A stretch of 64,000 nt of DNA from a virus, in IMG/VR virus record IMGVR_UViG_3300045988_165521. One strand, written 5' to 3'. The notes under the pieces were generated by a model. The model was not told the DNA's origin and did no database searches. It saw only the letters and a program-made list of their open reading frames with translations. Below, one piece after another: positions 1 through 64,000 of the stretch; within the stretch, counting starts at the first letter, position 1, and every line of letters starts with the position of its first letter. The position numbers and the translations under genes were made by a program.

Positions 1-2971
1 GATTAGTAATTGAAAGAATTTCATCTATAATTTCTAATTCTACATCAGATTTAATATGTCCATTATAATAGTCTGTAATCATAGTTGCTAAAACTTCTTC
101 ATCAAAGTCAGATCCTTTCTTATTTTTATAATAAGGATTTTGTCGCATTTTATTTCATAATTCAGTATCCTGTATATTACCTAAAATCTTATAATAAGAC
201 TCGGCATACATATTTCTGGCATCTGCTAAGTATAGATGTGAGAATTCATGAATTAGAGTATCGTCTGTAGCTCTATCAATATTAATATAAATTATTCCTT
301 CTTTAATAAATCCTTTTGCATTTTTAGTTGCAGTATCTTCATTAATTACATCCTGATCTGTTACTAATCTTACATTTTGTAAAGAATTTACATTTTTTAC
401 TAATTCTGTAATCTTAGTAGACATTGGAGTTTTTAAGTCATAGAATTTGGTTGGTCCATTATTAAATAAAGTAAGTTGATTTGGATCAGTTCTAACAAAA
501 GCTCCTGAATTAAAGATAATATATTTTAGAGTTCTAGATATAAGATTTTTAGAAGATGTATTAGTATTATTAAACTCGTCTACTAATATGTTATGTTCAC
601 CTATTAGTTTATTAGTTACAGCATACATTCTTTGATCATATCCTTCATCAAATAACTCTGCTACACTTTCAGCTATACCTCATTCCGTATAATAGTCAAA
701 ATCAATGTAAGAAACAACTTCTTCATTATTTTTATCTGCTTTTGTTTCTGCAACTTCAATAATTTTAGCAATTTTTAAAGCTTCTTCAACAGATATGTCT
801 GTTTTAGGAATATTGAATCTTACTTGTCTATACTGTTCATTTCCATCAGATACTAATATTGGTTTAGTAGTGTCTGTAGTTGAATCATTATAATCTCTAT
901 CTAAAGAAGTGTTTTCTTCAGATTTAAATCCAATGGTTTCAACATTTTCATTTGCTGCATTAATAAGTACTGCTTCTGCTCTTTCTGCCATACTATCATT
1001 TGGATCTCGTTTTAGGAATGTATTAGCAAGTTCTTGTGGATTTTGTTGGTCAATTCAATTATTATAATCAACAACTCATAATGAATTATCTCCACTTGCT
1101 ACTAAGTCCTCAAACAAACGAGTTAATGAAGCCTGTCCAAAACCATCTTTATTAACAATTAAGTTATATAAATAGAAGGCATTAACAGGATTTAGAGCTC
1201 CAAATTCAGGAATCGTAACTTTATTTAAACTATTAAAATCTCGTAAGATTTGTTCATAAAGAGCTTTAGTCTTTTGACTATTATCTATCTGCATCATATT
1301 AAATGGAAGTTTATAAAAACCTCTTTCCTTACCTTCTGAATCAGTTTTTAATCCAAAGCATAAATATTTAATAAATGCATTATCAGGTAATTTTTCTTTA
1401 AGTGTAGGAATAATATAATCCTCAATATACATTCTAAATGAATCAATATTATCCTTACTGTCTAGATTAATTATAAAGTTTTCATCTTTATTAATTAAAA
1501 TAGAATTTTCTACCTTATATTTCTGATTAACTGGAACTTGAAAACTTAAATTTTTAGTTTTAATTCATGAATCAATTAAGAAATCATCAATATTATTTCT
1601 AGTTTGTCTAAATTCTTCTATAGATAACTTACTTCCTCTTTTAGGAGTAGTTTCATCTATAACAATAGATTCAACTTGATTTCTAACTGATAATCGATTA
1701 AGAACTTCATTATCAACACTTAGAATATTAAACATTTCTTTGAAGTGTGGAACACTAGCTATAACATCTAATATATTAAATGTAGTCTTAACTTTTTCAT
1801 AGTTATCAATTTGTTGTAATCTGTATTCTTCATTAGCAGCAAACTTTAGTAGATTAAATTTCTCTCCAATTTCATCTTTAAACTTATCATTAATAAATGT
1901 TTCAATTCCCTTAATATAAGAATACTTTCCTCATTTATCTGTAGGAAGTCCTTGATTAATTTTTAATAATCTACCTAGAATTCTAATTTCTTCTGCACCT
2001 TTAGCTTTCTTCTTTAATGTTTTAAATAAAATTTCAGTTCTCTCATTTGCTTTTTTAATATCAGCTTCAGATGCATTTGGTTTATAAACTGCATATCTTG
2101 AAGGATCCTCAATAGCTTGATCAATGAAATGAATTTTATTTTTTGGAATTGGATCTGTTCAAAGATTTGTATTATATTCCGATACAAGTTTAGTAACTTC
2201 TTCAGATACCATTAAATCTCCAATTCTTCTTAAGTCCTCTCCAAGCATTAAACTATATACATAAAGATCAACTCAATTAGAGTCTGCATTAATTTTCTTA
2301 AGAATTAACTCCTTAGCATTATCTGTTGCAGCATTCAGTAACTCTCCCATATCAAGAGATTTATCAGTTAATCTTCTTTGGAAGTCTATTAGCTGAATAA
2401 TATTATTTGCAATATCTGCAGGAACTGCATATTTAGAAATTCATTCAGGATCATTTTCAAACATAGAAAAATCTACATTTGCTAATGTAATTAATTGTTC
2501 TGTTCCATTACGTTGAGAACCTTTAATAAATGAATATCTACTTAAAAGTTGTCTAGTTGTATCAAAATCTCTATTTACAATACTATCATAAACTTGTTTA
2601 AATCTAGTATTATATAAGTTAGATAATGCAAAGAAACTCTTTAATCCTGTAGCAACATTACCAATTACAGTTTTACCAACCATATTTTGAATTTGCATTA
2701 AATATTTACTAGCAGAATTATAAGGATTCATAATTTTTGCACTTTCTCCTAATACAGATTTACTTGCAAGTTCTTGCATATGAGATGTTGTAATAGGCAT
2801 TGTAAGGTTAATCTGATTTTTAGGACTCAGTATTACATCAAATACACCATTTACAATTGCATTTCTTATAGCATCCTGTTTTAAGAATGGAGATATTTTT
2901 GGATCTTCTGCATTTGTAAGTAATTTTCCATTATCAGAAATAGAATAACCTAATATATAAACTTTATCGAT
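1..2971 (-). CDS. virion-packaged RNA polymerase, exon 2 (3' portion; gene continues past the left edge)
   Basis: Track fragments 2441-2974, 1076-1432, 680-991 and 155-628 share one frame and are broken only by TGA. I hand-translated 1432-2441 and 1-155 and found no TAA/TAG. The first codons ATC GAT AAA (IDK) complete DYD|ID after intron removal. An HEFSH (HExxH) motif lies at 236-250. Confidence 0.75.
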
Positions 2972-3280
2972 CATTTTTGTTAGCTTATACTTTCGTATAA
3001 GATCAGACTATATCTTATATTAAATTACTATTACCATAATTTAATATCCTCTTATTTCCATAAAATAATGTACTCTACTTGTTTATTCCTAATAATATTT
3101 CTTTATTAGTATACTTTCGATAGTCGTTGAACCCTTCTTTTCAGAATCGGCTGCTGATTGTCCAATACTTATAATTTTTAAACATTCACACTTAAATCAT
3201 TTTTAGATTTTATGTTGTAGTTTATAAGTCTCTAAGGAGTTTCCAGCAATTAAAGAGGTTTTATTATGACACGTAACTCT
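2972..3280 (-). ncRNA. group I intron (309 nt, no ORF) inside the RNAP gene
   Basis: The minus strand carries the canonical core elements in 5'-3' order: P AATTGCTGGAAA (3240-3251), Q AATCAGCAGCC (3149-3159), R GTTCAACGACTA (3121-3132), S AAGATATAGTC (3006-3016). P/Q can pair as UGCUG/CAGCA and R/S as GACUA/UAGUC. The internal guide GTCATAA (3264-3270) pairs with the exon end TTATGAT, with U.G at the splice site. The terminal G is at 2972. Excision restores the reading frame. Confidence 0.85.
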
Positions 3281-6200
3281 ATCATAATCAGACCCTTGCA
3301 ACCATGTCTGATTGGTTGGTACGTAGACCTCGTTTATGTCACTATCAGTAAATAGAACTACTTCCATTGGCATGAATGACTGCATTGACTGACAAGGAAT
3401 ACGAGTACCTACAAATCTTAAACTTTGCTCAAACGCTTTATATTTTCTATCAGCGATTTTCATAATTCTATTACTAAATCTAATATTTTGATTATCACTT
3501 AACATTTGAATTAGCACTTGAGGATTTATAGATTTGTAATCTAAAATTTCTCTAGTTTTAATATCTCCAAAATCATCATAATATGATAAAGTAACATTAT
3601 CTGACGTAAATTGATTTGCAATTAAGTTTTTGTAATTAGATAATGTATAGTTATACTTATAGTTATTATAGATTCTAGAGTTATTAATTTCAGAAAATCT
3701 TTCAAAGTTATCTACAATTACTAGGTCATGTATATTTCCCGCAGTATCAGTATATTTATAAAACTTCTTACCTTCTGCAGATGCTATTTCTTTTCCATTG
3801 TAGTAAACAGAATTATCAACTATAGTAAAATCTCCATTTGGAGTTAAAGTATCCTTATATAAATTATTCAGATTTTGGTCTCCAATTTTTACATAAAGTT
3901 TTTTTCCAGTTCCATCAAATAATATTATATCATAAGATTCAGGATCAGGATTATCATTGTTATAATAACCTTGAATTCTCTCTTTAAAGAACTCAGCTCC
4001 TCTTTGCTTAATTTTAGCTATAGAATCTCCTGGCAATAGACCTAATTGTTTAGCATATAATTTACCCATAATAATCTGGGCAGGAATTACTTGTACAGAT
4101 TCAGGTTGTACATATATACCTTTTCATTGGATCATCTTACCATCAGCTAAATCATTTAATAATTTTTGCTGAGATTTATGTAACGAGTTTTCTATAAAGT
4201 CAATATCGATTTCTCCCGCACTAGGAATTAATGTTCCTGCTGCTCTACGAATTAGAGCTATTCTCTCTGTAGTAATAATATTAACTCATTCTAGTTGCTC
4301 AGGGGTTAAATCTTTTTCAGGTTTTCCTTTAAGCCCAAGTTCCTTTTTAATATTAGATCTTAATTCATCATATAGAGATTCTACAGTAGTACTAGAGGTT
4401 CCATTAAGATAATGTAATGCACGAGTTATATCTCCTTCAAAAATACTATGTTTTTCTCCCTCAATAATAAATATTGTATCAGAGCCTTTAAGATTTTTTG
4501 GACGTAAAGATAATCTTTGTGCATATCTCTTATCTAAGTTTTTATACCAATCGTATTTTGAATAATTATCAATTTTTACAATATCATACATATCAGTAGT
4601 AACCTTTCCCATATATCCTTGATATAGTCTCTGTCCTTCTTCGTTTAATAAAGGTTCTTCTCCATTAAACATCGGATCATTATAAACTACTAATGTATCT
4701 TCAAAATCGATAGGATTTTCAGCAGTAAGTTCTGTAACAAATGGGTTAATAAGATTTTCTCCATTACGAGTAACAAAAGGACCTTGCATTGCTTCATTAA
4801 TAGTTAAATCTGCAAGACGAGGATCTGTAGCTCTACCTACCTTTCTTACTAAATCTAAAAGTTCATCGTAGTTATAGTTATATCCTCCTCAGTTAAAATA
4901 CTGTTGTATTCCATATGATGGATTTAATACAGATGCAACACCATCATAATGACGTCTAATTGCATCTTTTACTAAAGAAGATGTAACTGTTGAGTTAAAG
5001 ATACCATTAATAGTACCTGCACTAAAAGGAATTTTATAATCGATTTTCTTTTCATTAAAACTTTGTTGAGCAAGTTTTATAAAAGATTGTGCAAGTCCTA
5101 AAGTATCTTTATTATTTGTTTGAAAAGCTTTAACTAAAGCTTTACCATAAATTTCATATAAGGCTTGTTGATCTCCTGTTTCAAGAACTTCATGAATTTC
5201 TGCAATAGCATCATGACATAATTTACCAATTTCTTGATATACTTTTGTTGCTAAATCGTGTGTAAATCCATTTTGTTCAAGAGCACTAATCATCTGAGTC
5301 ATTTCAGTAACTTCTGCTTCATCAAGTTCGTGATCTGCATTCATCTGAACTCCTCCAAACTTAGTTGACATTGTAGTAAACCATAAATCAGAATCATTAG
5401 TTCAAATATCATCACCATTAACATTAGAAGCTCCTACTTTGATAGCAGACTTATTTACAAGATACCCAATCATATAGTCTTTTAGATTATTATCATTAAT
5501 AATATCATTAACAACATCTAAATTATTTTCTGATCAATATAATTGTTTCATGGTATCATTGTATTCCATTGATCATGCTCCACCAAATATTTGATCTAAA
5601 TCATATATACTACTAATTTTAATATCTGTATCGAGTATACTATTTTCTCCAATTATATTACCAAATATATCGGTTTCAATACGTTCTACTTGAGCTACAT
5701 TATTATTAATAACTACATGATTTATTTTCCAATAAGTTTGGTTATCAGGTTCTCTATAGAAGAGATTATCAAATACTTTGTCATAAACGATTGTTACACT
5801 AGGATCAAATAGTAAATTATGCATTTTTCTAAACATATTTTCTAACTTGATATCTGATCCCCATGATGTACGCCTATTAGCATTTGTAATCTCATATTCT
5901 GCTCACTTTAATAATTTAGGTAAACCATATTCTCCATTCATATCTGCTAAAATAGTCTTTTTATTTCTACCTACTTTAGCATCAATTAGTGATACATTTT
6001 GTTGTCTAGAAAAATACGGACTTGTAAATCCAGATCCGTCCATAGAATCAACACTATCAGTCATACCAGAAATATTTTGTACAGCAGCTCCAATATCTCC
6101 AACTACAGCCATTTTAACTTTTGGAGCAACTCCATTTTTTAATCCTTGTGCAAAGGAATGATGAGTAGCTCCATAAATAACCATACGTTTTACCTGAGAA

Positions 6201-8998
6201 ATTCATCTGCTTGCAAAACTATGTTCAAGATATCCTTCTGTTGCAGAAACCTCTTTATTCTTATTTGGGTGAGCGTAAACTCCTCCAACCATCATTTTAT
6301 TATATTCATTACTTAAAAATGAATCCATAATGAAATACGAATAAAGCATAGGATTTAATTTACCATCCTTATCATGTATTGTTACATAAGGAACTGTATA
6401 TGATATTGGCTCATCATTTTCATCAACAGTTTCAATAGTTCTTTCAGAAATTCAGTTACTTCATTTTCTAGCAGAAAATGCCTTATATACATTTTTGTCA
6501 GAAGATATACTCTCTCAAGCTTTTGAGCTGTCTTCAAGAAACCTATTTAATTGATAATTAATAAACTCATCAAATTGATTTCTTTCGCTGAATATATTAT
6601 AAAGATTTTCAAGTGTTTCATTAAAGACATTTTTCTTAGTATATGGATCTTTAGATATATGAACTTCTTCAATAAATTCTAATCCGCTGTCTCTAAATTT
6701 TTGCTTAATATCTGCAAGTTTTGTTTTTGCAATATATTCTTTTAGATCACTTATAGTCTTAAATTCTTTACCTGTAGCTTGAGTATAGTCGTTTAAGATT
6801 TTATTAATTAAGTTCGTATATTGACTTTGATTTGTTTTAAATCAAATATTCATAATAGGTTCTAAATCAGATACATTCTTACTAGAATAATATTTCTCTA
6901 AAACTTCCTTAAAATTAATTGAACCTAAATCTTTAAAATCTCAATTTTGACTTAAATCAAATTGCATTACAAAATGTTTATTTTTATCTGAATAAACTGT
7001 TGATTGCAATCCAATTACTCCATTTACCTTTCCACCCTGCTCAGAAACAGATTTACTTGAAGTTAATCCTTCAAAGAAATCATATACTATTGCAAGATGT
7101 ATTACTTCATCTTCAGTAAGATTACTAGATTGTTTAGTATAATCTCCAATAGTTACTTCTGCTCGAATCTTTGGATTTTTAATACGTTGAATATTGTTAA
7201 ATACAGCATTATCACTCATTACTGTATCAGATCCTCATCCAAGTTCATCATGTAAATATTGGCTCATTTTCTTATGAGAGTACGCTAAACAAACCATTTG
7301 ATATAATGGTAAATTGTTACCTTCTGCATTCTTAATAACATTAATTGTATCAGAACCATTAGTAACACTTAATACTTTTGCTAAATCATTTGCTTGCCCA
7401 AAGAAGCCATTTTTGCCTATATCAATAATTTGACCTGAGTTAGCACTATATAAAATACTACCTAATATTGGAGTTAATAATGTAATTTTATTTACATTTT
7501 TTTCTCTTGGGAATACTTGTTCTGCAACTTGATTAAAATCATCTGCTACTAAAAATGAAGCAAAATCCATAAGTAAATCGTCCATTAAAGTATCAGATAT
7601 TATTCCTGCAGAATTAATTTCTCCAGTATCAGGATTATATTTTAAATTTAAAGTATTACTGCCTTCTGTAATACTAATATTAGTTCCAATAATATTAATA
7701 TCATATTTTCCTAACTTATTTTGGAAGTTAGTTTTATTATCAATTCAGTAAGTACTTGCAGCTTTAATAATATCTGTAAGAAAATATCTCTGTATTTGTA
7801 CAGGTCTATCAGTTAAATTCTTACCAGTTAATTCTCCAGTTAAGTTATCTTTACCATAACTAATATAACTTGACAATACTGTCTTATTCATTAGATGTGT
7901 ATACATTTGTTTAATTGGAGTAGCCATTTTATCTGAATAGATAAACTTAGCAATACCTCTTAACTTATTTTGTAAGTAAGTTGTATGTTCTGGTGCTACA
8001 GATTTAGTTGCTAGTGCATTTAAATATTTTCCAATAATTTTACTCATATCCATATTGCCCTCTTTAGCTATTTCATCAACTATTTCAGGGTCAACACTTT
8101 CCTCCATAAATAATTTTACTTTACCCATAGCTGAATTAAATCCAGATAAGGTAATAGCTGTATTTTCTATAATAACACCATCTTCATTAACTTCAGGAAA
8201 ATATGAAAGTAAAATTTTTGCGAGGTCACTGACGGATTCTTCAGCTCCCATAAATTCATTATTACTAAAACCAGTATAGTGTGTAACATTCGGACCATCA
8301 TAATTATAACGTCCTACAGCATAAGTTGAACTATTTTTATATTCTGGTTTAATAGAAATAAATGGAGTATATAATCTCAATATATCATCAAAAGTTTTTA
8401 ATGTTACATATGCATTATATGCATTAAAATATTTTTGATCTTGAGTAAGTCCTGCATTTTTAATGTAGGCTTCATATTCTTTTATAGTATCTTCAAATAC
8501 ATTAATAATAGATTTAGGTTCTGAGTCAATGCTAATAGGAGTTAGAGGTTTTCCCATGAACTCACTAATAATAGATAAAAGTTCTTGTTTATATTTAAAA
8601 ATTCCAGTATTTAAATTGGAATAACTTCCTAAAGTAGCATTTGCATCTATAAAAGAATCAGAATTAATATCAAATACAGACATAGAAATAATCTTTTTTG
8701 CTGTATCGTCAATCATTTTATTATATTGTCTTGAATTATCAATATAATATTGTTGAGGTGAAGATCCTTCGGGAGGAAGTTCAATACCTAATCTACTACT
8801 AATCTTTTTAGGTTCAGATACAGGTGTTGGAGCGGAGTCTGTATAGACTCCACTCACAAACATATTAAACACCTCATCTGGATTTGTAAAATGCTCATTT
8901 ATGAACACTTTAAACGCATTTAAATCTGGTGAATCACCTCTAAGTAAGTTCTTCAGTAATGGATAATATGCTGAAGAATATCCACATTTAACACTCAT
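3281..8998 (-). CDS. virion-packaged RNA polymerase (crAss/phi14:2 gp66-like two-barrel RNAP), exon 1
   Basis: ATG at 8996-8998 overlaps the upstream TAA (8988-8990). Eight track fragments (7745-8998 down to 3203-4069) share one frame and are separated only by TGA; gaps 6184-6941, 7585-7745 and 7219-7235 were translated and are open. 1906 codons. The exon ends ..FVGTRIPCQSMQSFMPMEVV..VPTNQTWLQGSDYD, which resembles the RxP...NADFDGD double-psi beta-barrel of RNAP beta'. Confidence 0.75.
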
Positions 8999-11900
8999 TA
9001 TTTTCTAATTTTGCTATTAAGTATTTCTGTACATTTTCTCTTAACTCGTTGAGAGTTTCATTTGTACTAACTTCGTTATAATATGTACTTGCTATAGTTT
9101 CAGTTACTTCTGTATTTTGCATTAGAGCTTTAAGGTACATTAAAATATTAGGACTTGATTTATATAAATCTTTTGCAGAATTTAAATAATCTCTAAGTTC
9201 TATATATTCATTCATTGTATTAAACTCTCTAATTGAGTAAACTCCATCTTTATTTTCAAGTACAAAATTCTTTGAATTATTGTTCAAAGATACTAAAAAT
9301 GGTACAAATTTCAAATTATTTCTAGAGATAATTGTAACATCATCTGGATTCTCTCCATAAGCTTGTTTAAACAAATTCTTAAGCATAGGAGTAAGATCAT
9401 CCTTTATTTCCTTCATTACAATTTCAGGATTATTAGAGTCTCCAACAATTTGAATTATTGTATAATTTGGAGTAGTAACTTTATTTAATATTTCATTATT
9501 AACATCATTAACTGTTGATTCTAATAAGTCTATATTTGTAATTTGTTTGTTTACTCCAAACTGTTTAAACGCCTCATTAATTTTATTAATCTTTTGACGT
9601 TGTAAATCCTCTTGAATAGCTCTTTCAGGATTAACTTGAATCTTGTCATAATCTATAATAAAATCGTTTCCTATTAAATTAGAAGCATTTGTAGAATATA
9701 GTTTATTTGCAGTATCAACTTCATAGTAGAATTGAGATCCTGGAACTACTTTAACTATATTATCAAATACATAAATACCTTGCTTAAAGTTTGGATTGTT
9801 TTCAATATGTTCTTGAAGTTTTTCAGTTTTTCCAACAAAGTCTGCAAAGATATTATATATCATAAATGATGGATCATTAAATTCAAATTTACCAACTCTA
9901 CTAATGTAACCTGTTTGCATTAACATTTGATTAGAATCGAAAGATCCAAACTCATTATTTAGTAAAGAATCAAAATCAGAATAAGTTTTTCCATTAACAA
10001 CATATTGTCCATTCTCCATAGTTACTATTCTTTCAGTAACGTTTCCTCTATCAGCTTGAGTTACTTTATCTTCATAAGTAACTCTAATAGCATTAGTATA
10101 TCCTGATTGTGTATTTAATAATGCTCCTAATCTAAATAATATAGTACTCTTATAAGGAGAGAAATATGCAAGTGAAATCAATTGTCCAGCTCTTTCTCTG
10201 TTAAGATTATTTCTAACTTTAACATTTTTGTCTCCTGCTTTTCTTTGTGCATTAAATAAATTAACATTATTAATTGCAGTATGAATTATATTATCTAAAG
10301 AAGCAACACTATTTATTCCTATTAATCGAATTCTAGGATCATTTTGAACAGTATTTAAAATAGTTCCGTCTTCTGCTACTTGTGCTTTTAAGTGAGCTTC
10401 AAATTCCTTTTGACTAACTAATGGATCAGCAGAGAATAACATAAATGTATTTCCTCTATTCTGATACATAAATGCATAGTTTCTTGAATCTGCTTCAAAT
10501 GTGTTTCCTACTCATTTAATATGATCCTGCCAATCTGACTTACGTACTACTAAAGATACTAATTTTCCGTAAGAAGAGAATAAACCTCCTTTATTTAAGG
10601 CACTTGTATTAAAGTTAGATACATCAACAGTTGTTAACTCTCCTTCTCTTGTAAACTTAGCATAACTTCCAATTGTAAAATCTCCTGTATATATTCCAAA
10701 TCTTGGAGTTGTAAACAATAGAGGAATTTGTGCTGTTTTATCTTTTATCTGAATTTTTGCTACTAATAATCCTCTTCGCCCATTATCATATGGAACTACT
10801 TCAAAAATAGGTTTAGTTTTTAGTGCAGTTTCTAGTTCACTAAAAGCACGACCCATAGCTCTATCTTTATTTAAAGCTTGTCCTAATCGTACAATTTCTC
10901 TTGGATTTTTATAATATCCATATTTAAAATAAGCAGCAATTAAATTTAAAGCTCTAATATATTTAGGAGCTGCAAGTTTACCTTTTATTCCTAATATATT
11001 AAATAAAGAAGATTCTGTAGCTTGATCATAATTTCATAAATTATTTAAATAGAAATCTGCAATATCATTCCATTTAGAAATATTTAAAGGATTATCTGTT
11101 ATTCCTATATTCTGAGGAACTTCTTCAAGTATATCTACAGGAGGAGTAACAGATTGTTCAACATTAGGAGCATGTACTGGATTTTGATCTGTAACAGGAG
11201 GTTGTTCTCTAGTATTACTATTGAATGTTTGTTTGCTTTGTGCTTCAGCTACAGTATTTTTAGTCTCTGGTTCTACAGAAGCTTGTCTAACTGGTTCCTT
11301 AGGAGATTCACTAACTATTTCTGCTTCTGGTGTAGGTTCTACTCTTGGCTTAATATTTTGTTCTGAAGTTGGTATAACAGGTTCAGCTACAATTGGATTT
11401 GGATTTACTTCTTCATAATCAATAGATTCAGGACTATTCTCTAATAACTTAGTTCTTCAGTCTTTGAAATCACTAATTTGTTCAGGAGATACTTCAATAC
11501 TTCCTGCACTAGTCATATCATTAATTGTGTTTAACTTTAAATCTAGACTAATCCCGTTATCTACAATAATTGTACCTTTTGTAGAACGTTGAGTTAATGT
11601 ATATAAATCCTTAAGAGTTAAATAGTGTTTTCCACTCGTATCTTTCCAACTCTTGTCTATGATTGCAAATTCAAATTCATCACCTTGGACACTATCTAAT
11701 CCTACTACTTTAACATTATTAATAGCAGTATATTTAGCAGGATTATCAGTTATAATTGCAATATCATTAGATAGTTTAGATAACTTTTCTACTATTTTAG
11801 GTACTTCATCTGAACTATTAATAAATTTCTCCCCACCAAACGTTTCAGTAGTTTCAAAATATTTAAGTTTAATACTATTTTCAGATAATATCTGTTTCGT

Positions 11901-39213: not shown

Positions 39214-40086
39214 TTATTTATTTCCAGGAACTGCTATAGTCTGATTAATAGGAACGTTTGTTTGTAATCTTGGATCACCTGCATTCTCTAATAATAGTCT
39301 AGTTACGATATTAATAATCTCGTAACAAACATAGTCTGGAAATTCCAGGGTTTGAGTATTATCTTCTGGTAATAATACATCATCCTGAGTCATGGAAACA
39401 TACATAGGAGCTTTTACATAAGTAATATATACATTATTTAAACTTCAATTCGAATCGCCACTATGTATTTCCAAATTTACAGAAGATTGATTTACAATCC
39501 TTTTATATGGTTCTTTTAATGCATAAAATCGATATTTTCCATCCTCTGTTTTAATATAATTAGGACGATAACTACCTTCTTTAATTTCATTATCCATAAC
39601 AGGATTTGTTACTGGTTGATCTTTTTCATTTCTATTAATAATATAATAATATGGCTTCTTATGTGAAGGTTTCATATAATAATTATTAATAATACCTGCA
39701 TAAAGATCTGCAGTTAATCTTTGACATGTTGAAGTAATAGTTCTTTGCACTCCATTTCCACATCTAGATTTATTTGAATCACTACCTGTAAATTCTGCAA
39801 TACAATTCAACATATGTAAGTAATCTTTAGGAAGTTGTAGCTCTCAAACAGTATCATTAAATTCCTGTCTTGGAGCAATTTTACCTACTTTAATTACTGA
39901 TGTAGTTTGTAAAAATCCTAAGTCATCTGAACTTTGTTGATTGTACTCACTTCTATTATATACACTATTTATATATTGTTGAATTGCTTTATTAAACAAG
40001 TATATGAAGTCCTCAAGTAAAACTTGAGGAGCTTTCACCTTGTTGCATTCAACTAAAATGTATTCATATGCTTGTCTAATAGTCAT
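39214..40086 (-). CDS. structural protein, 290 aa (possible head completion/adaptor; function unassigned)
   Basis: Fragments 39844-40086, 39445-39813 and 39214-39405 share one frame and are joined by two TGA; both gaps were translated and are open. Stop TAA at 39214-39216. Confidence 0.65.
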
Positions 40087-47300: not shown

Positions 47301-47320
47301 ATTAGTAACTTGTTACTAAT
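47301..47320. promoter_or_regulatory. perfect palindrome ATTAGTAAC-TT-GTTACTAAT (candidate operator)
   Basis: 9-bp inverted arms with a 2-nt spacer. It overlaps the TAG stop of the HTH ORF and lies upstream of the terminator and the next operon. Confidence 0.35.
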
Positions 47321-47609
47321 TGTTTTCTATAAATTTATCTAAGTCTTTCTTATATCAAAACAATTCTTTAAAACCTATTTGTTTACGACCATTAGGAATC
47401 TTCTTTGCCTTAACATAATTGTCAAAAGTCGCTCTACTAACTTTTAAGTATTTACATGCTTGATACTTGCTAAGTTTTTCATTCTTATTAGTTATTCCAG
47501 AAAGATATTCAATTACTTCTTCGCACTCTTCTGGACTAAGATTAGAATTACCAGTATCGATATCGTTAACAATTTTTAATAAAATTTCTCTAATAATCTT
47601 TAATATAAT
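47316..47609 (-). CDS. HTH_17 / excisionase-AlpA-type helix-turn-helix DNA-binding protein (about 90-97 aa; start codon uncertain)
   Basis: Not in the ORF track. The frame is open from about 47624 to TAG (47316-47318) with one TGA. ..LSKYQACKYLKVSRATFDNYVKAKKIPNGRKQIGFKELFWYKKDLDKFIENN fits the MerR/Xis-type HTH_17 pattern. There is no in-frame ATG, GTG or TTG; the only candidates are ATT (47607-47609) and ATA (47604-47606). Confidence 0.55.
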
Positions 47610-49483: not shown

Positions 49484-49502
49484 AATTTATATATTTTTAA
49501 GA

Positions 49503-53159: not shown

Positions 53160-55529
53160 TTATGATCAAAATATATCAAGCTTACCGTCTGTTCCAACTT
53201 GGATAGATGAACTTGTTGATACTAATTTAGACATATCTACAGCTAAACCTCTAGAAGTACCTTCACCAGTTACCTTAATAGTATTATCGGGACTAGTAAT
53301 AGATGTAATGCCACCTGCAACAGCAGTTTTAATACTATCACTAAGAGCCTGCATACCAGCAGCGATTGTTTGATCTGCACCAATTTCAGCACCACCAGTA
53401 ATGGAAACTCCAACTTTTACAGTTGAGCCTTTTATTCCACTAAGATCCAACTTAAGACCTTCGGCTGATTTTGATAGTGCTTCATTTGAAGCTGGATCTA
53501 ACTTAACATCAATAACATTTTCTTCTGTAATTGAAACTGCATTACCAGGAGTTAATTCGTCTTGCTTACCTCCAACAGATGTTTGTAAAGATTCAATGTC
53601 AGATTTATTAGTTCTGATTTGATTTAAATCAGTATCAGAAATTAAACCTGAACCTTCAACTTTATCAACTTTGTTATTAAGCTGATTAGTAACTGTAGTA
53701 ATCTGTCCTTCTAAAGCTGTATCTGCAGCCTCTAGTTCTGTTTTTGCTGCAGAAATTGCATCATCTACTTGTGACTTTGTATAGTATCCTGAAAGATCAA
53801 TTGTACCTCCCAGTGGATCCCACTTGGCACCATCCCAAGCATAATTAGTTCCAGCAGGAGTAGTTCCATGAGCTGCAACGACATTCCATACATCACCTTT
53901 CTTATTTCCAGAAGATGGAAGTTGGTCGTAACTATCTTTAGTACCTTTATAATCAAGAGCTGCAGCCACAGAAGCTTTCAGATCATCTATAAGAGTTTTT
54001 AAAGCTTTACCTTGTGCCGCAGAGAGTGCAGCATCCGTTTTATCACTTTCAAGTGAATCAATAATCTCAACTATTCCTGCTGTATTAGGAAATGATTTTC
54101 AAGCAGCTTCGAATTGTTCTTGATTGAGAGTACCACCAACAGCAATATAAGAATTGTATAAAAAGTCTTGAACTGAATATTCATCCATGGATTCATCACA
54201 AGGATCATATCAAATCTTATCGTGCTCTGGTTCGTTATTTGGAAAATCAGATTGACATCCGATTGCTATATTTTCATCACCAGGATCTCCTTTTTCTCCC
54301 TGAGGAATTCCAAATTTAAGATTTGCATCACTAATATCTGGATTTAAATCAGTTACATAAGGTTGTGCATCTGGTGCTAATTTTTCTACTTCAGAAACTA
54401 CAGTTACTGTAGCAGGTTTTCCTTTAGGAACTTTTACATTTAAAGCTCATTCTCTAGGAGCATTAGTTTTATCAATTACTAATGACGGATTTTGATCTCA
54501 CTCAACAGTTTCAATAGTTCCTGCATTAAATCTTGGAAGAACAGAACCAGTAGAAGTAATCACTTTACTTGATTCCATAGTTAATTCCAAATGACCTTCT
54601 GCATCACTAATATTAACTGATTTAATACTATCTCCTCTTAATTCTTCTAAATAGCATAGTGTAACCCATTCACTAGTAGGATCTCCTAAATATCCCCATA
54701 GAATTCTATCATCTGTTAAATTATCAGGATCTCCAAATTTTCTAACAAGTGCAGGTGTTCTTCCAGAATCTCCTTTAGGTCCCTGAGGTCCTTGTGCTCC
54801 AGTAGCTCCAGTATTTCCCTTGTCGCCCTTGTCACCTTTGGCTTGTCCTAATTTAATTCATGATTTTGGTGGATCATTCTTATCATAAGAAACAAACCAA
54901 TATCCGTCTTCAATTTTCAATTGAGGCGTTATACCATCTTCACCGTCTTCTCCAGGAATGCCAGGTGCTCCAGTAGCTCCTGTTAAACCTTCAGCTAAAA
55001 CTCTTTGTCCACTATCGTCAAATATTCATTCAGTTTTTTCATTAATAGATACTGTTCAATAATAATGATTATTAGATGTATCCTTTTTAATGCCGATAAT
55101 AGGAGTATCTCCAGCGGGGCCTTTAAGATCACTTATTGAGGTTGAACTTGGAGGAGTATTACTTTCTTTTCAAGAAAGTATTCCGTTATTAATCTCTGGA
55201 ACTCATACTTTTCCTGTAGGTCCTTCAACTCCCGCCATTACAAAAGCTCAGAAAAGATTTGGTTTAATACCAATGATTTTATCGTTTTCTCGAACTAATT
55301 CAGGCATATTTAACGAAGATGATGTATGACTTCTAATGCAAGACAATAAAGCTCCTTCAAATGATACAAAATCTACAATATATTCGTCATTAAAATAGTG
55401 AGTATTTGTTATTCATTCTCCCGCCATCTTAAAGGAAGTTCCCTTATAGAAATCTCTTGAATTATAAGCTCCAGAATACTCTCTTGAATTTTGTAGATCT
55501 ATAGTAGGTAATATATTATTTTTCTTCAT
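53160..55529 (-). CDS. collagen-like-repeat fibre protein, 789 aa
   Basis: ATG at 55527-55529. The full 53969-55529 stretch was translated and is broken only by TGA. G-X-Y runs are present (GATGAPGIPGEDGEDG; KGDKGDKGNTGATGAQGPQGPKGDSG). The N-terminal domain is paralogous to the upstream fibre. The gene ends ..LDIF-TGA-TCA-TAA. Confidence 0.8.
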
Positions 55530-55535
55530 AGTTTA

Positions 55536-58500
55536 TTATTTTGACCCTAATATTAAAAATGGAACACTAATACTTGTTGTTGGTACTTTGCCGTCTGCAG
55601 TTCTTACATCTAAAAAAGCTCCATTAATCCTGCCTCTTGCTGAACCATAGAACATTTTTAGCATAGCTCCATCTCATATAGGTTGTGAAAAAGCTATTGC
55701 ACTTATTGATAAAGTTCTACTATTATAAATACTTGTTAAATCTAAATTTGCAGAAAAATTTCCAGATTGACTTACAGTTAATACTAAATCAGTTCTACAT
55801 CTAGAAAAACCAGATAAAGATGGTACCCCAGATGAATTAAAATAAACTTCTCCACATGCTAAAAATGAATCACTATTATAATCGTCATAACTTTTATAAT
55901 AAAGATCTGAACGTAGCGTTCCATTTTGTTTCCATGTTTTTAACTCAAAATCTGATGTATTCTCTACTCAAATTGTTCCAACATAGTAATTATTAACTAT
56001 TGAAGATGGAACAAATTTAAATTCTAATACTCCTCCAGCTGGAAGTAAAATTTGAGAAGCATTAAAAAGAATTGGTTCATCATAACTGAATAGTAATCTA
56101 CCATTATAATAACCACAAATTTTAATAGATTCATCATCGTTTCCATTATCAAATGGATATATAAATAATTGTTTATCCGACTTATTATGAATTACTCCCG
56201 AATACGAATCATCAATATTTAATTGATATTCAGAAGCATTTACTTTAAGAGTTACATCTTCGTGTATCGTTGGCGAATATATAATTTCAGAATATAATGA
56301 ATCTAGTATATGTGGATCAGATGACTGAGTAAGACTATATTGTTTAATGTTTTGAATAATAGCATTATTAATTTTAATGTTAGTTAAATCAACACTTCCA
56401 TCACTACCAAACTTAATCTTTCCAGCAGCCATATGTCCAGCTCCAGTTCTAAAATCAAATAGTATATTTGGAGTAAACTCACCTTCTGTAGGAATTTCTG
56501 GATCAAAGTTTTGATATTGTGTAGATATTTGTCCACTTGCATCAATACCTTGTTGGCTAAACATATAGTTTCCATTAAATACAGCAGATCCAATAAGACC
56601 GTTAGCGATAATCCCAATTTTAGTATACAGCGCCTCAAATGCATCTAATTTAACTCAACTATTACTAGTATCAGTGCTAGGAGATTCATTACTGTGTAAT
56701 GTTCCTTGCCAAGTTCCTACTATGTTTAAAACATAATAGTTAGCATCATTAGAATCATATACATAAGGAGTTTTATCTGCGGTTCCTTGATATACAGTAT
56801 TAACATTATAAATACCTTCAGGATAAATTATTTGTCCTTTAGAACCATTCTCTCCATTTAATCCATTAGTTCCACTTAATTTAGTAGGAGTACTTCAACT
56901 ACCTTCAATTGTACCAACTTTATCAGTGTTACTTGTATAATTTACTCTAGCTTGAATAAACCAAATATAAGGAGTCTCTTCAGTTGGAGTTGGAACCGCT
57001 AAATCCCAACCTGTTGGCTGTCTTGTTGTTCCAGGAGTACTTGTTCCTCCATAAATAGTTGTAGTTCCTAAGCAATAACGAACTTCAATACCAATTCCAG
57101 GTAACCCATCAACTCCATCTTTACCTGCTGGACCAGGATCACCAGTAATTCCAGGTTCTCCTTTTATTTTGGTTCATTTATAGTCAGAAGGATCATCACT
57201 ATCATTTATATTATAATCTACATAAATTCCAATTCAAGCACCTGGATCTTCTCCATTGTTACCTGTAAAGGTTACACCTCCATCATTAGAGTATTTAATA
57301 TGTAGATAACTTGTTTTTCCATCTTCTCCGTTAGTACCTGGGATTCCTTGTTCTCCCTTTTCTCCTTGAATTCCTTCAAATCTTGCCCAAGTATAGTCAG
57401 AGGGATCTGTACTATCTGCTTGAGTAAAATCTACATAAGTTCCAATATATGTACTTGGAGTTTCAGTCATTTGACTTGAAGAAGTAGGGTTGGCAACAGC
57501 AGAATATTTAATATGAAAATATGTAGTTTTTCCATCTTCTCCTGGAGTTCCAGGAATTCCGTCTGTACCATTCGTACCATTTTCTCCACTTATAACAACT
57601 GGAGCAGTCCAGTTTGTATTTAAAGTATCATCAGGATTAATAGTTGCTGTAGTCATCCAGAGATATCCATCTTTAGATTTTTCAGGAGGAACCACAGACC
57701 ATCCTGAAGGAGTTCTTACTGTTGCGTTTAATGTAGGAGGATTTGAATTACTTGTATTTACAGCAAATCTAAATTCTGTAAATTTGCCATCTTGAGCTTG
57801 GCCATCTCTACCATTAACTGGTATTACTTCTGACCATTCAGTTACAAGTCCTGTTTCTCCATTAACTGTTCCAATACATTGCCACCAGTTTCCACTAGTT
57901 GTAGGATAATCTTCCCATTCAGACGGACTAGGACTATTTCCTGTAGGTTTTGATGGTTTACTATCACTTAATTTATAAACGTATGTTTTCCAATTTGGTA
58001 TTACTGCATCCTGTCCCTTTTCTCCTGTCATTTGAACAGGATCTGACCATTCTCCAACAAGAGTAGAATCTCTAAAAGATGCTGTAATTGACCATATAAT
58101 TTCAGAGGATGTGTGAATTGGAACAACTGTACTTCATACAGAACCAGGATTTGCATTAGTTTTATTTACAACAGGAGGAGTATTGACACTTCCACTCTTT
58201 GCATACATTAACTTAATACCTAATCCATCCTCTCCATTAGAACCATCAGTCCCATTTGTTCCGTCCTTGCCATTCTCTCCATCTTTACCATCAGCTCCTT
58301 TAGGTAATCCAAAACTAAATTTAAATATATCTCCTTCTAAAACTACATTAGCATTAGCTTCAGTTGTTGAAGAAACACTAGCTACTTCTGCATCAAAATT
58401 AGGAATTTCTCCGCCTTCAGAAATAGTTTTTCATTCTGTATCATAATCTGCATCAGATTTTTTAACTAATGCTTGACCAGTAGTTCCTCCAGGAATTACT

Positions 58501-59009
58501 CCAATTCCATCAGAGCCATTCTTTCCATCAGTTCCATTTTGCCCAGGATCACCTGTAGCTTGGCCTATATCTTGTCAAGTTTGACCTTTATCCATTGAAA
58601 GTAGTCAACGACCGTCTTCAATTTTTAATTGTGGAGTAATACCATCAGTTCCACTTGGTCCGATAGGACCAATATCGCCTTTATCTCCTTTTTGACCTTT
58701 ACCACTATTTCCCATAATAAAAGCTCAATACGGATTAGATTCTACACCAACAATTATATCGTCTTTATAAATTAGATTCGGCTTATTTCATTCTGATGAT
58801 AAATGACCTCTTAGACAATACAATAAAGCTCCTTCACAAGATATAAAATCAATAATATGTTCATCGTTGAAATAATGAGTGTCTGGAGTTCAGGCTCCTG
58901 CCATCTTAAAAGATGTTCCTCTATAAAAATCTCTAGAACTATACATTCTATAATAGTCTTGAGAATTTATTGCATTATCTATGATTACATTAACATTAGA
59001 TCTCTTCAT
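55536..59009 (-). CDS. large collagen-like-repeat fibre protein, 1157 aa
   Basis: ATG at 59007-59009. Fragments 57234-58031 and 55968-56564 share the frame; 55536-55968 and 56564-57234 were translated and are open. There are many G-X-Y runs and repeated DGKT.Y.HIKYS...DPSDY.W modules. Stop TAA at 55536-55538. Confidence 0.8.
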
Positions 59010-59944: not shown

Positions 59945-59945
59945 A

Positions 59946-60986
59946 TTATACAACTTGTTTTATTTTATCATTATAAGGATTAGTATCAACTGTTTCTGCA
60001 GCTTGAATTTGAACTTGTTGCTGTTTTGTTTCAATAAGTTTATCGTTATAATCCTTATCGTTTTTAACTTTTTCTCTTTCAATAGCTACTTTTTCAGCTT
60101 CAAGTTGTAGTCTAGCTTGACTATTTTGTTTAAGTTGATTTTGTGATTGACCTAATTCCCTTTGTAATTGTTCATTTTGTTTCTGTAACTGTTGCAGATT
60201 TTGTTCATATTGCTGAAGTTGTTGCTGCAACTGAGAAACACTATTATTTTCTTCCTTCTTAACAGCAGTAGCTTTAGCTACATAACGTTTAAGTTCGGAC
60301 ATACTATTGGCAGTTGCAATACTTACTGCCATATCGGGATCTGACATTCCAGCTTTAATTAATTCAATATTAAGAGCCTTTACAGTTTCCATATCTTTAA
60401 AAGACTTAGAACTATCCTCAATATGTAAATCAAAATCTGTAAGTGTATAATGTTCAGGAAGTGCAGTAAATATTCTTGAATATTTATTACCTAACACAAT
60501 AGTACCAGTAATACCATTTGGATATACTAATTTAGCTAAATTAAGCATATCATAATTAGCTTCTTTATAAATTATATCCATGGTTTCAAAATATTGTTTA
60601 GTTAATAAACCTGACATTTTAACTCCAAGTTGAACATTAGATACAGCATCTCTCTGTTCATATTGAGCTAACCTCTCAGGTAACACTCCTGTAATTGAAG
60701 AAGCTTGTTGTTCTACAGCTTGAATAGCTAATTGAATACCTTGAATAGCTTGAGCTTTAACTGTATCATCAAATCCATTAAAAATAGTATTAGGCATACC
60801 TTCATTACCTTCCTCCTTACTATTTATTAATGCTAAGCCATTCTTTTTATATGCTTGTCAAGCTTTAACTCGATCTGTTAATTTTTCACCTAAAAACGAA
60901 GGAATAAAAGAAACATCCATCCAATCTCCAACTCCTCCTGAAGAAGCAATAAGATTATCTCTAAAATATATAAGTAAATCATATTT
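59946..60986 (-). CDS. portal protein, exon 2
   Basis: Starts AAA TAT GAT (KYDLLIYFRDNLIASSGGVGDWMDV..) in frame with track ORF 59946-60797 through one TGA. The C-terminus is Q-rich coiled coil. Stop TAA at 59946-59948. Confidence 0.75.
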
Positions 60987-61314
60987 CATTGTTTATTCGA
61001 TATAGGTCGTTAATCTATATCCGTCTTTTTGACTGCTGCATGTCACCATGCAGATTAGACTATATCATACAAATTTGATTTAAAATTAATTCAAATAAAT
61101 TCTGTTTCATTATATTTCATAACTACTTATAATTAATTTTAAATTAAACTTGTCCCCGCACTTCCACTTACTTAAGTGTACTCCTTTCGGATAGTCGTTG
61201 AACTTTCAAAGATATTTCTATCTAAGCTTAGCTGCTGATTGTCTTAAATTTACTATTATTCAATTTAAGGTTTTCCAGCAATTCACGGGGTTTATACAGG
61301 ACTCATATAATTTA
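60987..61314 (-). ncRNA. group I intron (328 nt, no ORF) inside the portal gene
   Basis: Minus-strand P AATTGCTGGAAA (61272-61283), Q AATCAGCAGC (61231-61240), R GTTCAACGACTA (61191-61202), S GATATAGTC (61058-61066). The guide GTCCTGTA (61295-61302) pairs with the exon end TACAGGAT over 8 bp, with U.G at the splice site. The terminal G is at 60987. Excision is in frame. Confidence 0.85.
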
Positions 61315-62490
61315 ATCCTGTAGGTCCATAGTATGTGCTATTAATGAATATGGATCTCCATTTTTATCTAAGAAAAACATTCCATTAACAGATAATCTGC
61401 ATCTACTAGGACAATCTGCACTTCTTACAATATACTTTGATTCTCCACGAGTAATGTATACTTCTGAACCAATTTTTACTCCTTCATGTCTTGTTAATTC
61501 TCCAGTTTTATAATCTGCTTCAATTCATTCAACTTCATATACAGGAATAAGATGATTTTTTATAGGTTCTATTGAATCATAATCTCCAGGTCATCCTGGA
61601 TGTGCTTCAAGTCCTGCAAGAATACCTGTATGTAAATTATCCGCTCGTAAATTAGGTTCAGCAGGTTTACCAACATATCTAACCAAATAAGTAGGAGATG
61701 TTGAATCAGCAGTTTGTTGCATATCTCTAATTTTCTTAGCTGCTTCTGTAGTTAATTCTGATCTGAATGTATTTAAGATATCCTCTCTTGACATTCATTT
61801 TCTAATAACAACTCTCTTAGAATCTGCAAGATAAGGAGAATTTGGATTACGTTCTATAAATGTATTAACGGGATTTAAAATTTCAATATTGACATTTGAA
61901 TTACTTTCTGTAGGTTTTACTCTATAGTAACAAGTACCTGTAACAAGTAAATCTGTAAGTAATTCTGCCATTTTACGTTTTAAATCGATGTTTCTTGATT
62001 GTCTTAAATAATCAAGAATATTTTGTGCAGCAATTTCATATTCCGAAACAAAAGATTGATCAATATCTTGTTGAATTGAGTTGATTTCTTTTTCAATAAA
62101 AGGATCATTTACAATTTCTTTATTTTCAATAATAGCTGCAATAATGTTATTCTTTAAATACTGTTGCAAATAATTAAATACTTCTGCACTAATTTTAAGT
62201 TGCTTTTCTCTCATTATATTTGAAACAGTCTTTTCATCTTTGCAAGATACTTTTAAATCTTGATTTAAACCTAGATATTCTCCAACTAATACATCAATAT
62301 GTTTCTTAATTAATGGTGTAAAACTAACTGATGTAGGAGTCCCAATTCCGTAATTTTCTTCTAGGTGTTTGAATTGATCTGCATCTCTACGACAATGATA
62401 ATATCCATAAGCTTTTCTTATAGCAACTTTATCATATACAAGATTACCTATCGCATCATTAATCTTCTTTACTTCATTCTCTATCACCAT
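61315..62490 (-). CDS. portal protein, exon 1
   Basis: ATG at 62488-62490. Fragments 61795-62490 and 61591-61794 plus 61315-61591 were translated as one frame broken only by TGA. 392 codons, ending ..SLIAHTMDLQD. It sits immediately downstream of TerL. The spliced product is 738 aa. Confidence 0.75.
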
Positions 62491-62767
62491 ATTCTAATAC
62501 TATATATTGATTTCCTTCACCTGGAGTAGTCATTTCTCCAGAATAATATTTTGTTCTATCTAGTTGTCTGTTTCTAAGTTCTTTTTCAAGAAATTCGAAA
62601 AAACCTTCTTCATCACCTTCATAGACTAAAACTAGTGGAGCTTTTCATTGATTTAAATCTAAACTTAATTTCCATTGATTACCATCTATAGTTAATGTAA
62701 AGTCTCCAGTGTAATATGCACACATAGCCTTTTCAATTATTTCATATACTTTATCAACGAGTTCCAT
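62459..62767 (-). CDS. small ORF, 102 aa, between TerL and portal (overlaps both)
   Basis: ATG at 62765-62767, inside the last TerL codons. Two in-frame TGA. TAA at 62459-62461, 32 nt inside the portal ORF. Confidence 0.4.
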
Positions 62768-64000
62768 TCTTTTGCGGTATTACTCCATATTCTTTATAGC
62801 CTTTTTCATTAGTGAACCATCCAATATTTTCTCATTCTTTTGCTAATTTATCTTGAGCGGCAGGTCGTATATTCATTAGCTCTTCATCTGCAATTTCCGC
62901 CATTTCCATGCTCGCGATAATATCAAACTTTCGTTTATTTTCTCAAGAATATTTTAACAATTGCTCAAGCATTTCATCAATATCAATTGAATAACAGTAA
63001 TCATTAACAAAATTATTAATTAATTCAAGACCATGCTTGATAATAGCTTCTGTAGCTGGTACACCAATCATTTGTGAGTTGCCTCTTTTCATATCTCCAA
63101 GAGTTGAAGCAGGACGTTTCATAAATAGACTATCTTTCTTTTTTTCTTTAAAATATGTAACAATACTAATCTTAGTATGTTCAAGTAGTGCTTTACAATT
63201 ATATCATACTAATAACTTCATTGCTACATCATACGCTTCTCGAATATCTCGAGGACGATCTTTATAGATCGCAACATATTTCGCTTCTTGTAATCCATAT
63301 ATACGTTTCTTAATAACTATACAGAAATCAGATACATCTGTTGAGGTAGAAGAATCTCCAGAACCTTGGTCAATAGAGTCTATTCCTGCAACATATAAAT
63401 TTTTTAATACAAGACCATCTTCGTCACGAAGTGGCCTTTCATATATAGCAATTTTACTATTTGGATTATTTATAACTTTTACTTTTGTTAAATCAGGAGT
63501 ATCTCCAGAACGATCTCATAATAATGATACATACTCTGGTTTTAATCCTGCTTTAAATATCCTAATTTGGGTTAATCTATCTGCAATTGCAATTGAATCA
63601 AAGATATTTTCACCCTGCTTATATAATGCTTCATTTGGAATAAAACAGTGCTCTGCACAATAATCAAGTAGGTCTTTGCCACTTAATTTTTTACGTTCTT
63701 CCTCATAAAACTTTTTAAATTCTTCAGATTGTGTAACGCCTCTTGTATCTAAGAATTCTTCTCGTAAACTAAACTTATGAGCTGGAATAAAGAAAGCTGT
63801 TAATTGTGGTTTTCTATCTTCTGTATCATAGTTTTTATATGGAAGTACATTATACCCTTCTGGTTTTGCAAAAATGTTTGATAAACCTTCAAGTGCCATA
63901 TCATCACCACCTGTACCTAAAGCAATACGTGTTCCAAAATGATAACCACCAAGCTCAACAAGAGCATTACCTTGAATCCAACTTTTAGTTAAATATTTAT
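62751..64000 (-). CDS. terL: terminase large subunit, C-terminal (nuclease) part; 5' end beyond the right edge
   Basis: One frame from 64000 to TAA (62751-62753), broken only by TGA; 62751-63516 was fully translated. ..NLYVAGIDSIDQGSGDS.. and ..DYCAEHCFIPNEAL.. fit the RNase-H-like nuclease domain of TerL. The portal gene follows. Confidence 0.8.

Follow-up and report, generated by a model that had tools for sequence, protein, structure and literature searches.

Genome-wide use of TGA as a tryptophan codon in a common, probably crAss-like gut phage, and an intron-split tRNA(UCA) as its candidate decoder

The stretch of viral DNA analysed here, 64,000 nt of the IMG/VR record IMGVR_UViG_3300045988_165521 (hereafter the window), has 30.7% G+C and carries every one of its genes on the minus strand. 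Tiling of its open reading frames (ORFs) resolves positions 1..64000 into one co-directional arm of packaging, head, tail-fibre and giant-protein genes in which TGA is read as tryptophan (Trp, W). A preliminary description of the same DNA had claimed that TGA is a Trp codon throughout this late arm, with TAA and TAG remaining as stops. We are concerned with that codon: how it is used in the window, what it encodes, how far its use extends into the rest of the phage genome, and which tRNA may decode it.

Stop-to-stop ORFs of at least 100 amino acids (aa) in the window total 18,354 aa under translation table 11, the longest being 741 aa, and 29,152 aa with a longest ORF of 2,629 aa when TGA is taken as sense, an outcome that bears out the comparison of tables 4 and 11 that had been proposed; taking TAG as sense instead leaves the longest ORF at 741 aa. 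With TAA and TAG as stops, 37 genes comprising 20,597 codons tile the minus strand with nearly no gaps, and they contain 134 in-frame TGA and 106 TGG codons. One of them runs beyond the window edge, and the 36 complete genes end in TAA (32) or TAG (four) and never in TGA; a fifth TAG end belongs to a helix-turn-helix (HTH) ORF of 103 aa (47316-47627) that lies outside the 37-gene set. In frame, the genes are free of TAA and TAG, which reach 0.085 per codon when the two remaining frames are read; for an open frame of 2,628 codons to arise by chance, ln P is about -233. TGA itself is found at 0.0065 per codon in frame and at 0.034 per codon off frame, a fivefold depletion. The analysis shows that TGA serves as a normal sense codon with the meaning of TGG in nearly all genes of the window, and UAA and UAG are the only stops left in the phage.

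These counts uphold the preliminary description on the sense reading and on the gene ends, and amend it in several details. The late arm is not special, the replication arm described below using TGA at the same rate, and the TAA triplets at 61312-61314 and 3203-3205 are internal to introns. The 50 fragments ending in TGA that had been listed match the 51 TGA-terminated fragments of at least 100 codons found here, the true number of in-frame TGA codons being 134. Both long frames proposed from such fragments are indeed single, with 12 TGA making 13 fragments, not nine, of 8988-16874 and 11 TGA making 12 fragments, not seven, of 18776-23386. The TAG stops at 24107, 45045, 45788 and 47316 were placed correctly, a fifth at 40308 having been omitted, and the hairpins reported after 24107 and 47316 are both present.

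The amino acid was sought in strains of the phage and in two distant relatives, both collinear with the window: MT835470, which uses the standard code (longest table-11 ORF 2,970 aa), and MT835492, which is TAG-recoded on one strand. The decisive test for Trp is strain polymorphism, scored in IMG/VR strains 85-99% identical that cover 94 TGA and 66 TGG sites. Twelve of the 94 TGA sites are variable, 11 of these to TGG, and 13 of the 66 TGG sites are variable, 12 of these to TGA; TGA and TGG thus exchange with each other in 23 of the 25 polymorphic sites and never with Ser, Leu or Gly codons, a pattern that is the same as for the synonymous pairs TAT/TAC and TTT/TTC in the same strains. The distant relatives indicate an aromatic residue, W fitting best: opposite the TGA codons of the window they show W in 18%, Y in 16% and F in 13% of cases, against a background of 0.9% W and 4% G. 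Columns with W in both relatives (n=28) are filled in the window by 12 TGG, 6 TGA, 5 F and 3 Y, and none of about 240 columns with G in both is filled by TGA, so the alignment check on non-Trp and Gly columns that had been suggested comes out in favour of Trp. Summed BLOSUM62 scores give 114 for W and 111 for Y, and because this matrix cannot split the two, an empirical likelihood with substitution frequencies drawn from the same alignments was added along with the polymorphism test. By that likelihood W is best, F and Y lie 4.2 and 6.6 ln units behind, and all others are more than 50 behind (Ser -134, Gly -152). Finally, TGG by itself would put the Trp codon frequency at 0.51%, and TGG and TGA combined put it at 1.17%; W makes up about 0.9% in the aligned relative. 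Four independent lines, polymorphism, alignments, likelihood and Trp frequency, therefore support what had been claimed, a code in which TGA means Trp and only TAA and TAG terminate. The reassignment as such is already known, having been published for Zeta-group crAss-like phages (Yutin et al. 2021, PMC7886860), as the preliminary description also acknowledged.

Fibre genes in the window illustrate the same equivalence. Two paralogous fibre-like genes lie side by side, one of 1,157 aa at 55536-59009 (13 TGA, 15 TGG) and one of 789 aa at 53160-55529 (12 TGA, 6 TGG), and their shared motif QLKIEDG(Y/R)W has its W written as TGG at 54897-54899 in the shorter gene (QLKIEDGYWFVSY) and as TGA at 58605-58607 in the longer (QLKIEDGRWLLSM). 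TGA also occupies the W of their KMAGxW motif, at 58890-58892 (KMAGAW) and 55413-55415 (KMAGEW). A second pair of paralogous tail-fibre genes (49503-51395 and 47609-49483, together 47609-51395) has the motif YATQxWV with TGA in both copies, at 50448-50450 and 48332-48334, and the motif ELFWYKKDL, again with TGA, is located in the small HTH ORF at 47316-47627, whose TAG stop falls within a short hairpin. The motifs had all been named correctly, with the right coordinates for the QLKIEDG pair. In both pairs (53160-59009 and 47609-51395) the paralogs have N-terminal or internal motifs in common, and those of the second carry a near-identical segment, TALGFTPANVNDIPEIPIALPNPYAL, as well, a hint that receptor-binding parts may be exchanged as cassettes.

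At the right-hand end of the window stands the C-terminal part of the large terminase gene (62751-63998, minus strand as for all genes here; phrog_6681, E 1e-36), with 5 TGA and 2 TGG; it continues beyond the window end, and the full ORF at locus L036 has 771 aa and 10 TGA. The portal gene that follows is interrupted. Its first exon (61315-62490; 3 TGA) matches phrog_6547 positions 52-325 and its second (59946-60986) positions 441-770 of the same family, and between them lies a group I intron (60987-61314) that contains the TAA at 61312-61314 and matches Rfam RF00028 with 56.9 bits, the gathering score of that family being 50 bits. The end of the first exon was set against the intron-less allele L028; the insert is lacking there and in MT835470, the 5' exon ends in U and the intron in G. 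Rfam scans of the whole window gave no match, and the intron was seen only in a 900-nt slice.

The major capsid gene (41113-42522; Pfam PF23898 Crass_capsid, 34.7 bits against a cut-off of 27, E 9e-9; phrog_11589) stands apart in its codons. All seven of its Trp codons are TGG and none is TGA (binomial p = 0.003), its G+C content is 38.7%, and its G+C at third codon positions is 0.30 against 0.11-0.15 in other genes, which could reflect high expression or a recent transfer from a standard-code relative. A phmmer search of the capsid protein against PDB chains found no match. Near this gene some strains (L275 4575-5294 and L278 4551-5270) carry an extra gene for a 239-aa protein with a NUMOD1 domain, of homing-endonuclease type, between homologs of the window genes 40096-41001 and 39214-40086; the window is without it.

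The remainder of the arm holds genes for giant proteins of 1,500-2,900 aa. One of 1,506 aa (26045-30565) is restored when its 12 TGA are read, and its counterpart in the standard-code relative, an ORF of 1,570 aa, is collinear with it; a 200-aa gene (24107-24709) ends in TAG and, by a check of the sequence, is followed by the hairpin GGAGAGTAA/TTACTCTCC; and ORF tiling gives genes of 1,536 aa at 18776-23386 (11 TGA, 15 TGG) and of 2,628 aa at 8988-16874 (12 TGA, 10 TGG), the latter also from comparison with relatives. The ORFs 3203-8998 and 2-2974 form a single, intron-interrupted giant gene: strain comparison places exon 1 at 3281-8998, a 309-nt group-I-like intron at 2972-3280 with the TAA 3203-3205 inside it, and exon 2 at 2-2971, beyond which the gene leaves the window and continues in L055. 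The insert 2972-3280 is lacking exactly in strains L047 and L054 (96-98% identical), it contains the core motif GATATAGTC at 3006-3014, and here too the 5' exon ends in U and the intron in G. Splicing leaves a frame of no fewer than 2,896 open codons, among them 24 TGA and 5 TGG. A plain regular-expression search for D.D.D, the DxDxD motif of giant proteins resembling RNA polymerase, found none in the five largest proteins of the window, the next giant gene lying outside it; Yutin et al. reported in 2021 that Zeta-group phages frequently have a disrupted form of the motif (PMC7886860).

Same-species contigs, 94-99.6% identical to each other and to the window, allowed about 70 kb outside it to be read. 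Beyond the window end the arm runs for 7 kb more and is followed by a divergent cluster with an HNH gene and an endolysin-like M15 peptidase, and TGA is used throughout both. Beyond the window start one further gene, of 1,479 aa, ends the arm, and then comes a convergent replication arm of more than 45 kb, in which ORF translations identify a dNMP kinase, an AAA ATPase, a VWA protein, ThyX, thioredoxin, PolB and ligase, as well as helicases, dUTPase, RNR, a primase, and DnaB-like and SNF2 helicases. The early arm of contig 3300045988_177012 has 71 TGA and 74 TGG in 49 genes, compared with 134 and 106 in the window (Fisher p = 0.21), so that TGA makes up 49% of the Trp codons in replication genes and 56% in virion genes; all 49 ORFs end in TAA or TAG, TGA having been scored as sense by construction. 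PolB has 2 TGA after its ExoI motif, the primase has 4, and the DnaB-like helicase has 4 with no TGG after its first ATG. The contigs thus show a recoding that is genome-wide and not late-specific, the whole genome appearing to be effectively of code 4. TGA is avoided in two places, the capsid gene and a short early operon lying upstream, which codes for an IMPDH-like protein, a MoxR ATPase and a VWA protein and in which all 9 Trp codons are TGG and none is TGA (Fisher p = 0.004 in comparison with the remaining early arm).

In the contig just named (IMGVR_UViG_3300045988_177012; L063/L121/L153) PolB, RNR, the AAA ATPase and the SNF2 helicase are each split by homing-endonuclease genes of the GIY-YIG, LAGLIDADG and HNH types, at insertion sites without a scored intron RNA. 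The GIY-YIG ORFs write Trp only as TGA (3-7 TGA and 0 TGG each), and the LAGLIDADG and HNH ORFs use TGG too. A 144-kb contig (L043, reverse complement, 9500-13308) passes from phage DNA of 26-31% GC into a stretch of 42-48% GC with standard-code ORFs, then into further DNA of about 30% GC, and ends at a tRNA-Leu(UAA) and a tRNA-like remnant; for the 42-48% GC stretch, a junction with host DNA, a mobile element and chimeric assembly are all conceivable. The tRNA-like stretch beside the tRNA-Leu(UAA) was dropped as a candidate, as Rfam does not recognise it and it adjoins this possibly foreign DNA.

There is no tRNA gene in the 64-kb window, and ARAGORN finds none in the same-species loci in their unspliced form, relaxed thresholds returning noise only. 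In a 75%-identical relative, a 91-nt tRNA(tca) without an intron stands directly after the VWA gene (L267 14230-14320; also L268). At the syntenic site of the same-species contigs, downstream of identical sequence, there is a 440-nt structure instead, seen in 18 loci (L187 4488-4927; L188, L190-L194, L199-L202, L205, L207-L210, L214 and L215). It has a 5' exon, GCGAGCTTGGTGTAATGGTAGCACAGCGGTCTT, an insert of 346-385 nt and a 3' exon, CAAAACCGTATTGTAGGGCTCCAAACCCTACGGTCTCTGTTCGAATCGGAGAGCTCGTG, the split tRNA being marked by the exon pair GTGTAATGGTAGCACAGCGGTCTT ... CAAAACCGT. The insert divides the tRNA gene after U34, at the junction CUU|CAAA, with U at the end of the 5' exon and G at the end of the intron; it contains the cores AGACUAAA and GAUAUAGUC and matches RF00028 with 18.0 bits (E 0.04) and 15.0 bits (E 0.23), below the gathering score. 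In L207 and L199 a longer insert occupies the same site, that of L207 encoding an HNH endonuclease, and the insert looks like a mobile group I intron.

Splicing in silico yields an anticodon loop CUUCAAA, and ARAGORN then calls a tRNA(tca) of 93-94 nt in four of four exon variants. RNAalifold folds the spliced sequences into a five-arm cloverleaf in which 9 of 26 pairs have compensatory double changes and the D arm and the UCA arm are invariant. The first of its two anticodon-type arms is the intron-split one with UCA; the second stands at the position of the variable arm and has the loop CUCCAAA, which holds the Trp anticodon and is kept while its stem covaries (GTAGGG/CCCTAC, ACTGG/CCAGT, GGAG/CTCC). 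By BLAST, the 3' part is similar to genes annotated as tRNA-Trp in many phages, canonical tRNA-Trp(CCA) genes resembling both halves are found in the gut-phage records L269 and L270, and a BLAST of the spliced tRNA against E. coli genomes gave no match. Discriminator G73, C35-A36 of the anticodon and a Trp-type D arm and anticodon arm are retained. By these features the structure is best described as a split gene of apparent tRNA-Trp ancestry with two tandem anticodon-type arms; the literature that could be searched yielded no account of a tRNA of this kind.

The TAG-recoded relative MT835492 (L004) has six tRNAs at 11783-13885, for Asn, Asp, Thr (UGU, by Rfam only), Met, Tyr and Ala, and no CUA suppressor is among these six. 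Right after its tRNA-Met, at 12473-12540, a sub-threshold match to a hepatitis delta virus (HDV)-like ribozyme (RF02682, 28.9 bits) is reminiscent of theta ribozymes.

The exact capsid protein of the window is present in 1,941 blocks of public assemblies, the contigs reaching 169-173 kb at largest, which makes this a very common gut phage. Megablast of 20 kb of window DNA against the phage collection found no match, and tblastn of the capsid protein found there only MT835470 and MT835492, both unannotated. The traits of crAss-like phages are there: the Crass_capsid protein, introns that interrupt the portal and giant genes as well as the tRNA, insertions of homing-endonuclease genes, and a crAss replication set read from ORFs (DnaG primase, DnaB and SNF2 helicases, AAA ATPase, Thy1, dUTPase and RNR). 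From the Pfam capsid match and these genome features, membership of the Zeta group is likely.

Several other explanations were weighed against a phage-borne, genome-wide reading of TGA as Trp. That the TGA codons are true stops, and the genes pseudogenes, assembly errors or products of low-level read-through, is favoured by nothing except the table-11 reading itself, and we give it practically no weight: the 134 in-frame TGA stand alongside not one in-frame TAA or TAG, the frames of the window are collinear with intact ORFs of the standard-code relative MT835470, and the TGA positions are kept across many independent assemblies, so that chance statistics and conservation exclude this reading. 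A sense codon for another residue, be it Gly (as in code 25), Ser or Leu carried by a type-II-shaped tRNA(UCA), or selenocysteine (Sec), could draw on the candidate tRNA, which ARAGORN calls 'SeC', whose extra arm is long and whose best Rfam match is tRNA-Sec (31.6 bits, under the gathering score), and on the near equality of Y and F with W opposite TGA in distant relatives. Yet the acceptor, the D arm, the anticodon arm, the T arm and G73 of that tRNA resemble tRNA-Trp, and the exchange with TGG in 23 of 25 sites, the absence of TGA from about 240 conserved Gly columns and the likelihood deficits of Gly and Ser leave such a residue very improbable; although the tRNA is Sec-like in shape, polymorphism and alignments together rule out Gly, Ser, Leu and Sec.

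The two remaining alternatives accept Trp and differ over why the code is changed. On the model of Borges, recoding would be a late-gene timer with TGA only in structural and lysis genes and the replication genes in standard code. A window that is a single structural arm rich in TGA, a neighbouring endolysin-like M15 peptidase also with TGA, the arm-specific TAG recoding of the sister phage MT835492 and a small upstream block free of TGA would all fit, but TGA is equally frequent in the replication genes (49% against 56% of Trp codons, p = 0.21), so the timer cannot apply as stated and we consider it unlikely; the DnaB-like helicase, the primase and PolB all need read-through, and any switch must therefore precede replication and not the late phase. 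Alternatively the phage might drive no recoding and simply mirror its host, a Mycoplasmatota-like gut bacterium for example, in which code 4 would be native. The genome-wide use of TGA, essential early replication genes included, speaks for this, as does the lack of any release factor or tryptophanyl-tRNA synthetase (TrpRS) gene seen in about 135 kb of same-species sequence. Against it, the phage has a conserved tRNA(UCA) gene of its own in a wholly TGA-free operon, its capsid gene avoids TGA, sister phages of the same synteny are standard-code (MT835470) or TAG-recoded (MT835492), and the predicted hosts of Zeta phages are standard-code Bacteroidales or Firmicutes (PMC12386605); we regard such a host as quite improbable.

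We therefore return to a phage that brings its own decoder. Very probably the arm in the window, with its packaging, virion and giant-protein genes, belongs to a highly prevalent human-gut crAss-like phage, probably of the Zeta group, with a genome of about 170 kb, in which UGA would be read as Trp by way of the split tRNA. The following points weigh against this. The Zeta assignment is only a probable one, made through the Pfam capsid match and genome features. The window itself has no tRNA, the split gene being known from same-species contigs, and the covariance-model scores of its intron (15-18 bits) are far under the Rfam gathering score of 50. ARAGORN and Rfam label the shape of the tRNA Sec-like; a long extra arm is typical of tRNA-Ser, tRNA-Leu and tRNA-Sec, and from the tRNA alone its identity might be Ser. 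The extra arm of the intron-less tRNA in L267 has no CCA-type loop, so that any role of this loop cannot be a general one. A part of the genome amounting to several tens of kb lies outside view and could hold a conventional suppressor; by analogy with relatives, that part should include a block of about 20 tRNAs.

If the candidate is the decoder, the TGA-free operon would end in a phage tRNA gene of tRNA-Trp ancestry with a group-I-type intron after U34, self-splicing of which would give a tRNA with anticodon UCA, G73 and Trp-type arms. Host TrpRS, recognising the retained G73 and C35-A36, would charge the spliced tRNA with Trp, and the charged tRNA would outcompete release factor 2 (RF2) at UGA. 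The operon and its tRNA would be made first, under the standard code of the host, and since both can be expressed in that code, the downstream TGA genes would become translatable only once the tRNA had been made. That the 'missing' opal suppressor of this clade is such a tRNA-Trp derivative, split after U34 by a mobile group I intron and bearing two anticodon-type arms when mature, strikes us as an evenly balanced proposition. We speculate that the extra CUCCAAA arm is an identity decoy that keeps charging by TrpRS despite the changed anticodon, and splicing of the intron could control when the infected cell changes over to code 4.

Cellular systems offer partial parallels. In the code 4 of Mycoplasma and Spiroplasma, UGA is read as Trp by a U34 derivative of tRNA-Trp, tRNA-Trp(UCA), and the genomes, rich in AT, use TGA next to TGG, as here; that recoding is cellular, genome-wide and accompanied by loss of RF2, whereas here a virus would carry the decoder into a presumably standard-code host. 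In the tRNA-Leu(UAA) of cyanobacteria and plastids, U34 of the anticodon loop is immediately followed by a self-splicing group I intron, the position also of the group I-like intron described here, which differs in lying in a putative Trp-type suppressor of a phage with alleles with and without an HNH endonuclease ORF.

Among phages, the closest comparison is with the Zeta group itself, whose members have genomes of 145-192 kb from the human gut with many introns and homing endonucleases, use TAG-recoded, TGA-recoded or standard code on neighbouring branches, have a PolB that is split by introns with TGA in exons and intron ORFs, and often have no detectable suppressor tRNA (PMC7886860; PMC12386605). 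The opal phages of that group resemble the phage of the window in the reassignment of TGA to Trp, the split PolB, the introns and homing endonucleases and the hard-to-detect suppressor. The two papers differ from our results in finding reassignment mostly in late genes, where we find it equally dense in replication genes, and in leaving the suppressor unidentified for several opal genomes, where we have a split-tRNA candidate (PMC7886860; PMC12386605). Phage Lera (Echekvirus) is likewise a Zeta crAss-like phage with TGA read as Trp in TerL, structural and lysis genes and carries a tRNA-Sup(TCA), but as a continuous gene found by tRNAscan-SE, and only about 18% of its ORFs contain TGA (PMC12386605). 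In their code-change module the TGA-recoded Jade and Agate phages have, as is proposed here, a suppressor tRNA(UCA) in a standard-code-compatible block upstream of the recoded genes, and homing endonuclease ORFs that prefer TGA; unlike here, their replication genes are in standard code and their tRNAs are continuous genes, and some of them add TrpRS and RF1, neither of which was seen in the phage of the window (bioRxiv 10.1101/2021.08.26.457843). What lies beyond the standard picture is the genome-wide extent of the recoding and the putative split five-arm tRNA(UCA), both of which come from outside the window.

For annotation the consequence is that every gene model of the window, and of this widespread phage, is wrong under table 11, and two genes need removal of an intron as well. 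A suppressor was detectable in only 35% of code-4 phages (bioRxiv 10.1101/2021.08.26.457843), and three papers state that most TGA-recoded phages have no detectable suppressor tRNA (PMC7886860; PMC12386605; bioRxiv 10.1101/2021.08.26.457843). The intron-split five-arm tRNA(UCA), as a putative decoder, may explain why, and surveys might look for tRNA halves flanking group I cores. For the phage itself, the switch to code 4 must come right after the short TGA-free early operon.

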